NCBI GenBank assembly: GCA_965242695.1
Contig: CBDESU010000001.1
Span: 608,001-672,000 of the forward strand
Source of the DNA: Cenarchaeum sp.
GTDB lineage: Archaea; Thermoproteota; Nitrososphaeria; Nitrososphaerales; Nitrosopumilaceae
Length of the DNA stretch: 64,000 bases
Reading direction: 5' to 3'
The notes under the pieces were generated by a model, which worked only from the letters and a program-made list of their open reading frames with translations, ran no database searches and was not told where the DNA came from. Below, piece by piece: positions 38,141-43,428 of this stretch (position 1 is its first letter; each line of letters opens with the position of its first letter). The translations under genes and the position numbers were made by a program.

Positions 38141-38518
38141 ATGTCGGATGAACGCAGCTATGCGACCATGATCTGCTGCATGGACGGAAGGATCCACGGC
38201 CCGCTCGTCGAGTGGACCCGGAAGAAGGCCAACGTCAACTACGTCGATGCGGTCACCGAGCCGGGCGCGGACAAGATGCTCTCGCACTCGCCAGAGGTGG
38301 CCGATCAGCTACGGAGGAAGGCAAAGGGCTCGATAAGGGCGCGCGGCTCCAAGCTCCTCGTGGTGGCCGGCCACGCGGGGTGCGCGGGCAACCCCGTCAG
38401 CGAAGAGCAGCACCGCAAGGACGTTGCGGACAGCGTAAAGGTCGTGCAGGGATGGGACACCGGCGTCGACGTGGTCGGCGTCTGGGTCGGCGACGACCGT
38501 ACGGTCTTTCCCGTATAG
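38141..38518 (+). CDS. Beta-class carbonic anhydrase-like protein
   Basis: CMDGR and HxxC zinc ligands, TEPG; tttataa TATA at 38111. Confidence 0.8.
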   Translation: MSDERSYATMICCMDGRIHGPLVEWTRKKANVNYVDAVTEPGADKMLSHSPEVADQLRRKAKGSIRARGSKLLVVAGHAGCAGNPVSEEQHRKDVADSVKVVQGWDTGVDVVGVWVGDDRTVFPV

Positions 38519-38575
38519 CGGGAACGCGCCCGCCCTTTTTCTGATTTTCCGCGGCATGCCGCGCGCGCGGGCCGC

Positions 38576-38683
38576 CCTGCCCTACGGGTGCGCCACGGCG
38601 GCCGATGCGACGTGGCATGAGGCACGAACCGGTCTCACACAAGGAGCCTGCCCTACGGGTGCGCCACGGCGGCCGATGCGACG
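38576..38683. repeat. 37-bp perfect direct repeat flanking a 34-bp unique insert (site 1)
   Basis: cctgccctacgggtgcgccacggcggccgatgcgacg at 38576-38612 and 38647-38683. Confidence 0.9.
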
Positions 38684-39459
38684 GCCGCGGCGGCCGCGCT
38701 GCCGAGCACGACGTCGTAGGTTCCCATGAATATCTTGGCGGCGACCACGAACAGGACGCCGGCGACCAGGACTCGCAGGTACGTGTCCCTGACCCTCTTG
38801 GAGAGGCGCGCGCCGAGCATGCCGCCGGCGAACGCGCCGCCCATCATGTACAGGGCGTGCGTGAGGTTCATGTCGCCGAGTATCGCGTGCGCGGCAAGGC
38901 TCGAGGACGAGACGAACAGGAGTATGAACTGCGACGTCGGCGCGGCCCGCCACGCGGCCATTCCCATGACGACGACCAGGAGGGGCATGAAAACGACGCC
39001 GCCGCCGACGCCGAACAGGCTCGACAGGACGCCGGCAAAAAAGCTCGCGCCGGCGGCCATTACCATGACCAGGCCGGCGCGCCTGCGCCTGCCCGCCTGC
39101 CCGGCGCGCCTGCGCAGCAGCATGTACGCGGCGGACGCGACGATCACCATGGCGAAGAAGAACTTGAACATGTCGGGGGATATGTCAGACGAGATGAGCG
39201 CGCCGACTGCGATTCCCGGGACCGCCATGAGGCCTAGCGTGAGCCCCTCCCTGTAGTCGATCCTCTTCTGGCGGTAGTACGATATGGTCGACGACGACGA
39301 GTTTGCCAGTACGGCGAACAGGCTGTTGGTCGCCGCTATCGGGGGCGGGACTCCGGCGAGCGTGAGGACGGGGACGATGATCACGCCGCCGCCGAGGCCG
39401 ACTATGGAGCCGAGGGCGGCCGCGGCGGCGGCCAGGCCGGCCATCCACAGGTCGATCAC
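38653..39459 (-). CDS. TauE/SafE (TSUP) family sulfite exporter
   Basis: GSIVGLGGGVIIVPVL and SLFGVGGGVVFMPLL repeats; about 8 TM; tttata box upstream. Confidence 0.9.
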   Translation of the reverse strand: MIDLWMAGLAAAAAALGSIVGLGGGVIIVPVLTLAGVPPPIAATNSLFAVLANSSSSTISYYRQKRIDYREGLTLGLMAVPGIAVGALISSDISPDMFKFFFAMVIVASAAYMLLRRRAGQAGRRRRAGLVMVMAAGASFFAGVLSSLFGVGGGVVFMPLLVVVMGMAAWRAAPTSQFILLFVSSSSLAAHAILGDMNLTHALYMMGGAFAGGMLGARLSKRVRDTYLRVLVAGVLFVVAAKIFMGTYDVVLGSAAAAAVASAAVAHP

Positions 39460-39586
39460 GGCGCGGCCTGCGGGGGGGCCGTATAAACAGCATGCGGGCG
39501 GCGGGCGATGGGGCGGCCGCCGCGGCCTCGGGGCCTCGCGCCTGCCAAGCGAAGCCCGTATATGGAGGGGGGATGCGGCAGGCTGC

Positions 39587-40030
39587 GTGAGCGTTGCCGT
39601 AGGGACAAAAAGGCCGGCGCAGCGGAGCGCGCAGGCCGCATCTGGACTGGAGGCGGGCCGGGCCGGCTCGGCGCTGTCGCAGGAGGCCAGGGGCGACATC
39701 CACGAGGTGCGCGCCGTGCTCAGGGCGCTCATGGAAGATCAGCCGGCGCACGTGATGGCGAAGCTAAGGGCGCGCCTCGATGACCTCTTGGACGCCCGCC
39801 TGGACGCCCGCATAGACGACAACATAGACGCCCGCATAGACGCCCGCATAGACGCCCGCGTGTACGACCACCTAGACGATATCATGGATGCGCGCATGGA
39901 TGAGCGCGCGGCCGGCTTCAGGACCAGCGCGCACGAGGGCGGATACGACATAGTAGAGGTGTACAGGTACGATGTCGCGAGGCACAGCCCGATGTCCGGC
40001 AGCTGGCCGCGCGATCGGGCCTCCAAGTAG
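39587..40030 (+). CDS. Coiled-coil protein with DARI tetrapeptide repeats, paralog 1
   Basis: GTG about 25 bp after gtatat; near-identical to 40504..41010. Confidence 0.7.
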   Translation: MSVAVGTKRPAQRSAQAASGLEAGRAGSALSQEARGDIHEVRAVLRALMEDQPAHVMAKLRARLDDLLDARLDARIDDNIDARIDARIDARVYDHLDDIMDARMDERAAGFRTSAHEGGYDIVEVYRYDVARHSPMSGSWPRDRASK

Positions 40031-40073
40031 GCATCGCATGCGCTGCCAACGCAATCCTTTTGACGGCGTGCGC

Positions 40074-40181
40074 CCCTGCGGAGACTCCTCGCATGCTGGG
40101 CCGTCCCGGCGCGGGCCCTAGAACCGTTCGGAGGGCAGGGCAAGCCCTGCGGAGACTCCTCGCATGCTGGGCCGTCCCGGC
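40074..40181. repeat. 37-bp perfect direct repeat flanking a 34-bp unique insert (site 2)
   Basis: ccctgcggagactcctcgcatgctgggccgtcccggc at 40074-40110 and 40145-40181. Confidence 0.9.
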
Positions 40182-40503
40182 ACTTGATGCTGATGCGCCG
40201 CCTGCCCGCCCATGCCGGCCGGGAGCCCCGCCCACTTTAGGGATCGACCCTAGCTTGCGCCGCCGATCATGCGGCATGCAACGCCGTAGCCCGGCGTGCC
40301 TTGGCATGCCGCCCGATCCGCACCGACGCACCGCCTCACGGTCCAGATGCTTGCGCGAGCCAAGGATGTTGCGATCGGGTTGCTCTGCCCGATGCGATCG
40401 CGCGGGCCGGATGCGGCCTGGCCTTGGCAGCTGCGCGCGTGCGGGCCGGGCCGCGATCTTGCCAAGCGAAGCCCATATATGGAGGGGGGGTGCGGCAGGC
40501 TAC

Positions 40504-41010
40504 GTGAGCGTTGCCGTAGAGACGAAAAGGCCGGCGCAGCGGAGCGCGCAGGCCGCATCCGGACTGGAGGCGGGCCGGGCCGGCTCGGCGCTGTCGCAGG
40601 AGGCCAAGGGCGACATCCACGAGGTGCGCGCCGTGCTCAGGGCGCTTATGGAAGATCAGCCGGCGCACGTGATGGCGAAGCTAAGGGCGCGCCTCGATGA
40701 CCTCTTGGACGCCCGTCTGGACGCCCGCATAGACGACAACATAGACGCCCGCATAGACGCCCGCATAGACGCCCGCATAGACGCCCGCATAGACGACAAC
40801 ATGAACGCTCGCCTAGACGCCCGCATAGACGCCCGCGTGTACGACCACCTAGACGATATCATGGATGCGCGCATGGATGAGCGCGCGGCCGGCTTCAGGA
40901 CCAGCGCGCACGAGGGCGGATACGACATAGTAGAGGTGTACAGGTACGATGTCGCGAGGCACAGCCCGATGTCCGGCAGCTGGCCGCGCGATCGGGCCTC
41001 CTCCAAGTAG
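40504..41010 (+). CDS. Coiled-coil protein with DARI repeats, paralog 2 (expanded repeat)
   Basis: catatat TATA; about 20 extra residues in the repeat tract. Confidence 0.7.
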   Translation: MSVAVETKRPAQRSAQAASGLEAGRAGSALSQEAKGDIHEVRAVLRALMEDQPAHVMAKLRARLDDLLDARLDARIDDNIDARIDARIDARIDARIDDNMNARLDARIDARVYDHLDDIMDARMDERAAGFRTSAHEGGYDIVEVYRYDVARHSPMSGSWPRDRASSK

Positions 41011-41267
41011 GCATCGCATGCGCGGCCTCTGCACTCCACTTGGCGGCATGCGCGGGGGAATTCCATGCGCACTGTACTCGTCTAGGCACTTGATGCTGGA
41101 GCGCCGCCCGCCGGCCCACACTGGGCGCGAACTCTGCACACTTTGGGGATCAGCCCTACCTTGCGTCGCCGATCATGCGGCATGCAATGCCGCAACCCTT
41201 GCAACTTTGCCGTGGCGCCCGAGCTTGCCGAGCGCATCACCGCGCTAGGAATACACACTGGCATGTT

Positions 41268-43428
41268 TCATATCTTGGCGGCCCTGTCGTACGCGGCGAG
41301 CGCCTCGGCGTGGCGCCCGAGCTTGCCGAGCGCATCGCCGCGCCCGGCATGCCCCGATGCAATCTCAGAGTCGATCTCCACGGCCCTGTCGTACGCGGCG
41401 AGCGCCTCGGCGTGGCGCCCGAGCTTGGAGAGCATTTCGCCGCGCCCGGCATGCCCCGATGCAATCTCAGAGTCGATCTCCACGGCCCTGTCGTACGCGG
41501 CGAGCGCCTCGGCGTGGCGCCCGAGCTTGGAGAGCATTTCGCCGCGCCCGGCATGCCCCGATGCAATCTCCGAGTCGATCTCCACGGCCCTGTCGTACGC
41601 GGCGAGCGCCTCGGCGTGGCGCCCGAGCTTGCCGAGCGCATCGCCGCGCCCTGCATGCGACAGGACATATCCGCCGTCGATCTCCACGGCCCTGTCGTAC
41701 GCGGCGAGCGCCTCGGCGTGGCGCCCGAGCTTGCCGAGCGCATCGCCGCGCCCGGCATTGCCCCGATGCAATCTCCGAGTCGATCTCCACGGCCCTGTCG
41801 TACGCGGCGAGCGCCTCGGCGTGGCGCCCGAGCTTGGAGATCATTTCGCCGCGCCCGGCATGCCCCGATGCAATCTCCGAGTCGATCTCCACGGCCCTGT
41901 CGTACGCGGCGAGCGCCTCGGCGTGGCGCCCGAGCTTGCCGAGCGCATCGCCGCGCCCGGCATGCCCCGATGCAATCTCCGAGTCGATCTCCACGGCCCT
42001 GTCGTACGCGGCGAGCGCCTCGGCGTGGCGCCCGAGCTTGCCGAGCGCATCGCCGCGCCCTGCATGCGACAGGACATATCCGCCGTCGATCTCCACGGCC
42101 CTGTCGTACGCGGCGAGCGCCTCGGCGTGGCGCCCGAGCTTGCCGAGCGCATCGCCGCGCCCGGCATGCCCCGATGCAATCTCCGAGTCGATCTCCACGG
42201 CCCTGTCGTACGCGGCGAGCGCCTCGGCGTGGCGCCCGAGCTTGCCGAGCGCATCGCCGCGCCCGGCATGCGATAGGACGTATCCGGCATCGATCTCCAC
42301 GGCCCTGTCGTACGCGGCGAGCGCCTCGGCGTGGCGCCCGAGCTTGCCGAGCGCATCGCCGCGCCCTGCATGCGACAGGACGTATCCGCCGTCGATCTCC
42401 ACGGCCCTGTCGTACGCGGCGAGCGCCTCGGCGTGGCGCCCGAGCTTGCCGAGCGCATCGCCGCGCCCGGCATGCCCCGATGCAATCTCCGAGTCGATCT
42501 CCACGGCCCTGTCGTACGCGGCGAGCGCCTCGGCGTGGCGACCGAGCTTGGAGAGCATTTCGCCGCGCCCGGCATGCCCCGATGCAATCTCCGAGTCGAT
42601 CTCCACGGCCCTGTCGTACGCGGCGAGCGCCTCGGCGTGGCGCCCGAGCTTGGAGAGCATTTCGCCGCGCCCGGCATGCCCCGATGCGATCCCGGTATCG
42701 ATCTCCACGGCCCTGTCGTACGCGGCGAGCGCCTCGGCGTGGCGGCCGAGCCATGCCAGCGCATCCCCGTTGCATGCTGCTATGACCGACGTCCGTTCGC
42801 CGGGACCGATGCCGTCGCACCGCTTGACGACGGCCTCGTAGCACTCGCGCGGCGGCGGCAGCTGCCGGCTTGCCTCGAACCGCTCGGCCGCCCTGGCCTT
42901 CGACATGTCCATTATGACGAGAGCCTCGGGCCATGCCGCAAGCATTATTCTGGCGAACTCCTCCACCGTCCAATACGAGATGCGACCGTCGATGAGCGCA
43001 TCGGCCATGGCGTGGACGACCGCATTGCGCTCCGGCGTCAGGCGGCCCAGGGCGGCGGCCATCTCCTTGGTGAGGATGCGGCCCATGCCGCACCTGTCGA
43101 GGACTGACCTGATGTCGTCGACCGACGAGATGTTCGTGTCCGCCGCGACGATATCGACCCATTCCATGCTCCTGCTGCGCTCAAAGGTGTCCCGCCGGAC
43201 GACCGCCGCGGCCTTGTCCTCCTCGGGGTGCTCCCTCAGGTAGGCGGCCAGGACGTACCTACATATCTGCTCGATCGCCGTCACAAGCCTGACGACCAGC
43301 ATGTTGAGGTCGTCTGGCTTGCAGCTGCCGAGCAATACGACGAGGCGGTAGAGCCTGTCGAACACCACTACCAGGCCACCGGGCGGCGAGGCTGCCGCCA
43401 TGCGAACGATAAACCACCTGCCGCCCAT
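41268..43428 (-). CDS. HEPN + 15 near-identical TPR repeat protein; +1 frameshift near 41758 (error or pseudogene)
   Basis: LVTAIEQICR and RNAVVH motifs; 102-bp repeats; cggcattgcccc versus consensus cggcatgcccc; gtataag TATA. Confidence 0.8.
41275..42760. repeat. 102-bp tandem repeat x15 (TPR)
   Basis: GRHAEALAAYDRA occurs 15 times. Confidence 0.92.

Follow-up and report, generated by a model that had tools for sequence, protein, structure and literature searches.

The subject of this report is a 64,000-nt stretch of archaeal DNA (hereafter the window; G000:C1:608001-672000, where G000 denotes the genome that holds it), and in particular two short sites at which a perfect direct repeat encloses an insert. 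A preliminary description interpreted these sites as possible footprints of spacer integration outside any array by the Cas1-Cas2 machinery of a CRISPR system. The G000 assembly comprises 3.89 Mb in two contigs (C1 and C2), with a guanine + cytosine (GC) content of 67-68%. It encodes an archaeal AmoA, and the public sequencing runs that contain the window stretch are mostly labelled as sponge metagenomes, suggesting that G000 belongs to a sponge-associated ammonia-oxidising archaeon. The two sites and their immediate setting are as follows, in window coordinates.

38576..38612: site 1, first repeat copy; perfect 37-nt match to 38647-38683
38613..38646: site 1, insert (putative ectopic spacer); 34 nt, or 34-36 nt counting ambiguous boundary bases
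38647..38683: site 1, second repeat copy; contiguous with the TauE gene, whose stop codon (38653-38655) it holds
38653..39453, minus strand: TauE/SafE family gene (PF01925, E 3.9e-53, 181 bits)
40074..40110: site 2, first repeat copy; intergenic, 44 nt past the stop of open reading frame (ORF) 39575-40030; perfect 37-nt match to 40145-40181
40111..40144: site 2, insert (putative ectopic spacer); 34 nt
40145..40181: site 2, second repeat copy; perfect match to the first
41054..41087: empty paralogous site, in unit 2 of a ~917-bp tandem duplication

The geometry originally described for these sites is real: each has two perfect 37-nt direct repeats with a start-to-start spacing of 71 and an insert of 34 nt, and the bases adjoining each repeat copy differ, making 37 nt the maximal exact match. 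At site 1 the repeat spans the last 28 coding nt of TauE, the stop codon and 6 nt beyond, in agreement with the earlier statement that it is simply the 3' end of this gene. The second repeat copy is contiguous with the gene and holds its stop codon, so TauE is intact; the first copy, downstream of the gene, represents the duplicated target and amounts to a pseudo-copy of its 3' end. Site 2 lies in the first unit of the tandem duplication. When the two units are aligned, the flanks of the site align well on both sides, and the second unit has one diverged repeat copy and lacks ~74 nt, including any insert, as had been noted.

The duplication itself extends over window positions 39531-40316 and 40448-41222, with 96% identity across the first 300 nt. 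Each unit contains an ORF with 12-nt GACGCCCGCATA repeats, in 5.8 copies in unit 1 and 10.8 copies in unit 2; the ORF of unit 1 (39575-40030, 151 aa) has no Pfam match.

A resident type I-G system and a genome-wide set of sites

No cas gene is found among the ORFs of the window, as first stated. A type I-G CRISPR-Cas system is present in G000, however, ~425 kb away.

C1:1072688-1096404: CRISPR array, recovered by scanning for direct repeats at short range; 330 repeats of 36 nt, of which 325 are exact
Beside the array leader, minus strand: Cas2 (PF09827, E 3.5e-17)
L002:623-2584 = G000:C1:1096922-1098883, minus strand: Cas4g/Cas1g fusion, 653 aa (NF049935, 688 bits against a cut-off of 560)

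The array spacers are 34 nt (30 spacers), 35 nt (77), 36 nt (121), 37 nt (66) or 38 nt (28) long, with seven others, such that 322 of 329 fall within 34-38 nt, and the array periods are 70-74 with a mode of 72. Degenerate repeats mark the left end of the array; the right end is followed by a leader of ~200 bp, then Cas2, then Cas4/Cas1, with Cas3g, Cas8g2, Cas7g/Csb1 and Csb2 on the opposite side of the array from Cas4/Cas1. The only Cas1 match in all of G000 is the one within the fusion. In an alignment of six homologs that includes the protein of G017, a genome from another genus, the cysteines and the acidic and lysine residues of Cas4 are invariant, as are the acidic and histidine residues of Cas1; we take these to be catalytic or cluster-binding.

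Beyond the genus and G017, the nearest relatives of Cas4/Cas1 found in genome contigs do not exceed 48% identity. Most come from bacteria (Myxococcota, Planctomycetota and others), a pattern suggestive of horizontal acquisition of this gene. A fragment of an ISH3-family transposase adjoins the effector genes (L003:11765-13120). With up to seven mismatches allowed, no copy of the canonical CRISPR repeat occurs in G000 outside the array. A degenerate mini-array at G000:C2:312248-312410 has two copies of a 31-nt repeat (period 68) and a decayed third; the 3' half of its repeat (GCGGCCCCATTGAAGC) matches the canonical repeat, and the locus probably represents what is left of another, related array.

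To place the window sites in context, direct repeats of 34-42 nt with at most two mismatches per 34 nt were sought across G000 outside the CRISPR array. Near-perfect repeats number 5, 4, 5, 19, 37 and 6 at periods 68 to 73, and 14 in total at the 39 other periods between 46 and 110 that are not divisible by three; coding repeats supply a background at periods that are multiples of three. The excess is far greater than chance would produce. The 87 rows at periods 66-77 were reduced to 66 by requiring a period of 68-75 and a flank identity below 0.45, and a last filter for internal short-period repetition removed C1:968772, C1:1144278, C1:1840304 and C2:1361407, leaving 62 curated sites. Their periods are 68 (3 sites), 69 (4), 70 (5), 71 (19), 72 (24), 73 (6) and 75 (1), and both the modal repeat length and the modal insert length are 36. 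The two repeat copies are identical at 40 sites, differ at one position at 15 and differ at two positions at seven. The ectopic periods thus peak at 71-72, compared with an array mode of 72, and the modal ectopic repeat has the length of the 36-nt array repeat.

These data bear on several expectations raised by the preliminary description. A genome-wide scan was predicted to reveal a spike at 37-bp repeats with 34-bp inserts; a sharp spike is indeed present, at periods 71-72, but not specifically at that geometry, which occurs at only three of the 62 sites. Given the modes of 36 and 36, the exact agreement between sites 1 and 2 is a coincidence. The same conclusion applies to the motifs that the two sites have in common, since GAACCG is found in three of the 62 inserts, an AG ending in six, and a CC(C)TGC start in two of the 62 sites. 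The prediction of cas1, cas2 and an array with 37-bp repeats held for the proteins (Cas4/Cas1 and Cas2) and for the existence of an array, but the repeat is 36 nt, not 37, a length that agrees with the ectopic geometry once +/-1 nt is allowed for bases that match by chance at the boundaries. Sites 1 and 2 are ordinary members of the 62-site set.

Each site has its own repeat and its own insert, with the longest stretch common to any inserts being 14 nt and to any targets 16 nt, so no shared mobile element accounts for the set. None of the array spacers matches any of the 62 ectopic inserts. One filled site occurs twice with an identical 37-nt insert, at C2:21121 and C2:22547, 1.4 kb apart, indicating that a segmental duplication came after the integration; C2:22547, as the duplicate of C2:21121, was dropped before the count of 62. 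Site pairs less than 500 bp apart number three, compared with 0.49 expected (P 0.011). The proximity of sites 1 and 2, 1.5 kb apart, is not significant, as four pairs lie within 2 kb and 1.95 are expected (P 0.13). The CRISPR-cas locus has four of the 62 sites less than 25 kb away (C1:1055703, 1059971, 1104056 and 1119653), compared with ~0.8 expected, an excess that is suggestive only, because the 25-kb span was chosen post hoc.

Donors, alleles, targets and relatives

Additional evidence comes from the origin of the inserts. Eight of the 62 match another locus in G000 over their full length, with 88-100% identity, and the matches end at the insert boundaries.

C1:281167: 32 of 32 nt
C1:646576 (site 1): 32 of 34 nt; donor at C2:854240-854273, with identity dropping sharply outside it
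C1:1495196: 36 of 36 nt
C1:1540756: 33 of 35 nt
C1:1712704: 32 of 34 nt; multi-copy donor
C2:678358: 37 of 37 nt
C2:1198366: 31 of 35 nt
C2:1502087: 30 of 32 nt; donor in a repeat family

One of the eight donors lies inside an arginyl-tRNA synthetase gene. Shuffled inserts gave no match of at least 30 nt in G000 in 20 replicates of 62. Duplications whose boundaries are set by a donor are 35-37 bp long, with ambiguous bases at two sites allowing up to 39; at site 1, one ambiguous base on each side of the insert means that 36/35 fits as well as 37/34, for a duplication of 35-37. Self matches are far rarer in the array, where two of 320 distinct spacers have a perfect match elsewhere in the genome, compared with the eight of 62 ectopic inserts that have donors (Fisher p = 1.1e-5). 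This difference is expected if self-targeting spacers are lethal and purged only from an expressed array, and are harmless elsewhere. The array spacers with self matches are the 245th and 319th from the left end; they match G000:C2:698844-698878 and G000:C1:975632-975669, and both matches are followed by TAA in the orientation of array transcription. The first of these matches lies in a local GC dip (0.53-0.56).

Sequencing from other samples was used to ask whether the sites exist in more than one allelic state. Contigs from four public runs (X1, X4, X5 and X9), each from a different study, were compared with window positions 38300-40400. Site 1 is filled in X1 and X4, each of which has a 94-nt unitig (38583-38676) that runs from the first repeat copy through the insert into the second. 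It is empty in X5 (a contig of 1343 nt) and X9 (561 nt), where position 38575 is joined directly to 38647; the gap is exactly 71 nt, with at least 127 nt aligned on each side and the 37 letters of the repeat fitting either side. The donor locus of site 1 is found on separate contigs in X4, X5 and X9. Being filled in two runs and exactly empty in two others, site 1 is no assembly artefact; closely related populations are polymorphic for its presence. Within G000, the site at C1:1104056 has paralogs at C1:1104751 and C1:1123216, each with a single copy of the target and homologous flanks, and is a cleaner paralogous empty site than the diverged one of site 2.

Base preferences at the targets were examined by pooling both ends of all sites, giving 124 half-sites. 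Position +1 is G in 71 of these, position +4 is G in 74, position +5 is C in 62 and position -3 is A in 31, and a random control was flat. The targets have a GC content of 0.77, compared with 0.68 for G000. Fifty of the 62 sites lie outside coding ORFs, four overlap ORF ends, and eight lie in stop-to-stop ORFs, mostly near an edge; the coding mask is crude and covers 44% of G000, making the intergenic bias approximate. A third repeat copy is seen at one site only, and that one is ambiguous, while sites 1 and 2 have two copies each. Candidate multi-spacer ectopic arrays at C2:173437 and C2:109826 were rejected as ambiguous or of low complexity. Since a third repeat occurs at just one of 62 sites, the ectopic sites are single dead-end events and not growing arrays, and the term "proto-arrays" that was originally applied to them overstates their case.

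Cas1 was also sought in five relatives, and the first 400 kb of one contig from each was scanned and filtered in the same way as G000.

G004: 3.7 Mb, same genus; Cas4/Cas1 present, repeat identical to that of G000; 10 sites in 400 kb
G002: 3.2 Mb, same genus; Cas4/Cas1 present, related 36-nt repeat; 20 distinct sites (22 rows) in 400 kb
G001: 2.0 Mb, same genus; no Cas1; 0 sites in 400 kb (two rows, both one coding tandem repeat)
G003: 1.8 Mb, same genus; no Cas1; 0 sites in 400 kb
G017: 4.3 Mb, another genus, GC 0.39; Cas4/Cas1 and an array with a related 36-nt repeat; 0 sites in 400 kb
G000: Cas4/Cas1 present; 9 and 5 sites in two 400-kb samples

Scars are therefore present in three of the four Cas1-bearing genomes, G000 included, and in neither of the two Cas1-free genomes. 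None of 30 inserts from the relatives matches G000, which points to lineage-specific events. For one G002 insert, a 31-nt donor is present in the G002 DNA that was sampled. Another, at G002:C1:110117-110225 (L066), is 37 nt long; its first 17 nt equal the last 17 nt of the CRISPR repeat of G002, and 20 nt more follow. It has no second copy in G002, and from its sequence it looks as if it was captured from the array itself. In G004, the TauE ortholog (82% identity) carries the CCCTACGGGTG stretch once, in a region that has diverged.

Proposed off-target integration and its rivals

The explanation that best accommodates these observations, and one that we regard as very likely, is that the sites are fixed off-target Cas1-Cas2 integrations made by the resident type I-G system. 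The period spike, the presence of the cas genes, the donors and the alleles all support this reading, which is also the first of the two offered by the preliminary description; the unknown integrase, its alternative, is not needed. The reading draws on the geometry of the sites and its match to the array, the cas genes, eight donors, the two alleles of site 1 and the distribution of scars among relatives. Under this model, each site would represent one full-site spacer integration by Cas4/Cas1-Cas2 into ordinary chromosomal DNA in place of the leader-proximal repeat. The complex would carry a prespacer of 32-38 nt, the two 3' ends of which would attack the two strands of the target ~36 bp apart, the same spacing as on the 36-nt CRISPR repeat. 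Repair of the two resulting single-stranded gaps would duplicate 36 +/- 1 bp and produce the order target copy, insert, target copy. The target would need little likeness to the repeat, with a weak preference for GC-rich DNA, for G at +1 and for G-C at +4/+5 on each strand, and the prespacers would include pieces of the host chromosome taken without a recognisable protospacer adjacent motif (PAM). Surviving scars, nearly all between genes or at gene edges, would be mostly young, effectively neutral and fixed by drift.

Several observations weigh against this interpretation or complicate it. Strictly, the empty allele of site 1 need not be ancestral and might instead have arisen by exact deletion between the two 37-bp repeats. 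The contig check covered only two of the 62 sites, sites 1 and 2, and the confirmation in independent sequencing that had been called for was obtained for site 1 alone: the filled form of site 2 was found only in run X1, as a 94-nt unitig (40081-40174), and X1 may be the window's own sample. Runs X4, X5 and X9 lack cover across site 2, with one X4 contig resembling the paralogous unit. The proposed search for insert sources was likewise successful for site 1, which has its donor in G000, but not for site 2, whose insert has no second copy in G000 and no match in 31 related genomes at up to three mismatches, and whose 24-nt core has no match in viral contigs or metagenome contigs. Similarity of the targets to the canonical repeat is marginal, with 14.0 of 36 positions alike, compared with 12.75 +/- 0.25 for GC-matched random 36-mers. 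The eight donors have no flanking triplet in common on either side, contrary to the expectation of a consistent PAM, and type I-G Cas4/Cas1 reportedly does select a PAM (Almendros 2019). "PAM-less" here means only that the ectopic donors have no triplet in common, as the resident PAM is not derivable from two self matches. No PAM could be derived from the 341 distinct spacers of the G004 and G002 arrays either, which gave low-complexity matches only when compared with G000. A defective Cas4 was considered as the cause of the missing PAM and rejected, because the residues presumed to be functional are invariant in all six homologs, including that of the scar-free G017.

Interpretation of the comparison with relatives is also confounded. 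The absence of sites from the sampled DNA of G017, which has both Cas4/Cas1 and an array, indicates that the system alone is not sufficient. Within the genus, the Cas1-bearing genomes are 3.2-3.9 Mb in size with a GC content of 0.67-0.71, and the Cas1-free genomes are 1.8-2.0 Mb with a GC content of 0.52-0.56, so that the presence of Cas1 is confounded with high GC content and large genome size. No clean empty sites could be called in G004, as at 82% identity its intergenic DNA is too diverged. The internal period profile of G000 is consequently a stronger control than the distribution of Cas1 among relatives.

Of the alternative explanations, the one that survives best accepts a Cas1-Cas2 origin and adds that some scars are kept for a function, either as mini-arrays giving rise to crRNA-like (CRISPR RNA-like) regulators or as altered gene ends and promoters. 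We consider this very improbable. The location of sites at gene edges and in intergenic DNA is what it would predict, but the same bias is expected from purifying selection alone. The three pairs of sites less than 500 bp apart, where 0.49 are expected, and the single site with a third repeat could also be read in its favour; 61 of 62 sites, however, hold a single insert, and each repeat is unique, unlike one that the Cas6-like Csb2 should recognise. Retention for a function also sits poorly with the polymorphism of site 1 and with the finding that none of the 30 inserts from relatives matches G000.

A second alternative, with a slightly smaller chance of being correct, is that a non-Cas integrase or tiny mobile element inserts pieces of 30-40 bp and leaves target-site duplications of 36-37 bp. 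Although the lack of a cas gene in the window and the lack of a PAM at the donors are consistent with such an activity, the lengths of both duplication and insert match the resident array exactly, and the footprints are confined to sampled relatives that have Cas4/Cas1. No relationship exists among the inserts, several of which copy housekeeping DNA, leaving no element to be mobilised. To our knowledge, no transposase makes duplications as long as 36-37 bp.

Still less can be said for tandem duplication (~71-72 bp) or replication slippage in which half of the unit later diverged, even though the arrangement A-B-A amounts to 1.5 copies of a 71-bp unit and G000 is rich in tandem repeats. Divergence would have had to erase the resemblance between insert and flank, whose identity at the same period is at background (below 0.45, the value used as the filter), yet leave the repeats perfect at 40 of 62 sites, and it explains neither the eight inserts with donors elsewhere nor the peak at 71-72. 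Finally, an assembly or library artefact, which the narrow contig check and the single run supporting site 2 might invite, is scarcely credible, since the 94-nt unitig of site 1 occurs in runs from two studies and a clean empty allele in two others, sites of the same class are present in two other assemblies (G002 and G004), and the inserts are real genomic sequence and not adapters.

A bolder form of the favoured explanation is that in this clade of archaea, sponge-symbiotic ammonia oxidisers with large, GC-rich genomes, the type I-G integrase, off target, acts as a promiscuous chromosomal insertion machine, with a ~36-bp ruler that is nearly independent of sequence, frequent loading of self DNA without a PAM, and 16-50 fixed scars per Mb. 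We judge the chances of this stronger proposal to be slightly better than even. If it is correct, the scars are an unselected record of what Cas1-Cas2 captures and where it integrates, and comparing them with the self-purged array would directly measure what adaptation costs in autoimmunity. Off-target integration would then be a real mutational force in some lineages and a source of raw material for new arrays.

Known systems and significance

Demonstrations of off-target integration by Cas1-Cas2 have come mainly from E. coli proteins made in excess or from in vitro work, and natural cases have been circumstantial. Integration of this kind by the E. coli type I-E proteins, termed "neo-CRISPR", was observed when the proteins were over-expressed (Nivala, Shipman & Church 2018, Nat Microbiol), and a passage citing this work calls the evidence from natural genomes, in two other species, "circumstantial". 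The parallels with G000 are close, in that spacer-sized DNA is inserted outside the array and a repeat-length target is duplicated to give repeat-spacer-repeat. The G000 events differ in being natural, numerous (~62 in one genome), archaeal, of type I-G, polymorphic in field samples and supplied by self donors. In the E. coli experiments, oligonucleotides were reportedly provided together with over-produced Cas1-Cas2.

Off-target acquisition is one proposed origin of isolated or orphan mini-arrays (Shmakov et al. 2020, CRISPR J). Like the G000 sites, these have two repeats and one spacer, lie far from cas genes and are attributed to off-target integration. Those arrays are said to have been found as CRISPR-like, with repeats resembling a known repeat. 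One important difference is that the targets in G000 are host sequence of any kind, a gene end for example, which means that array finders would miss them.

Transposons and casposons also duplicate their targets through staggered strand transfer and subsequent gap repair, with duplications that are shorter and a defined element that has terminal repeats. The G000 sites resemble them in the staggered transfer and gap repair proposed above and differ in that the inserts are unrelated 30-40-mers and the duplications are longer.

Two further systems provide partial parallels. Pyrococcus furiosus Cas1-Cas2 integrates off target into plasmids in vitro, and the off-target sites were argued to reveal intrinsic sequence preferences (Grainy et al. 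2019, PMC6698737). As in G000, an archaeal integrase places spacers in non-CRISPR DNA; in contrast to the specific repeat features described for the in vitro sites (PMC6698737), the likeness of the G000 targets to the repeat is marginal. In Streptococcus thermophilus, ectopic spacer acquisition has been described in arrays (PMC7999890, PMC5338259). This too is integration away from the leader-proximal repeat, but in the described cases it still takes place within the CRISPR array, at a genuine repeat.

Searches of the full text of articles turned up no account of natural scars spread across a genome in this way, either in sponge archaea or elsewhere. The mechanism is known from laboratory work and no natural case of this scale was found in print, although the natural examples in the 2018 and 2020 studies may overlap with ours in kind. 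With ~62 events, G000 holds an unusually large natural record of integration error, and its sister species hold more per Mb. Such a record makes several questions testable on natural data: how independent of sequence the molecular ruler of the integrase is, how often self DNA is captured when there is no selection (eight of 62 ectopic inserts against two of 320 array spacers), and whether new CRISPR arrays start from ectopic integrations, almost none of which have grown here. The scars are also a caution for annotation, as they are invisible to CRISPR finders and can duplicate the ends of genes.

Downstream of the duplicated units, window positions 41279-42769 hold a 102-nt unit (34 codons) in 14.6 tandem copies with 91% matches. 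The long minus-strand ORF at 41237-43162 has no Pfam match at E 0.001; a gene of the neighbouring type near the cas locus (L002:11504-13981) gives a strong match to a tetratricopeptide repeat (TPR) protein.

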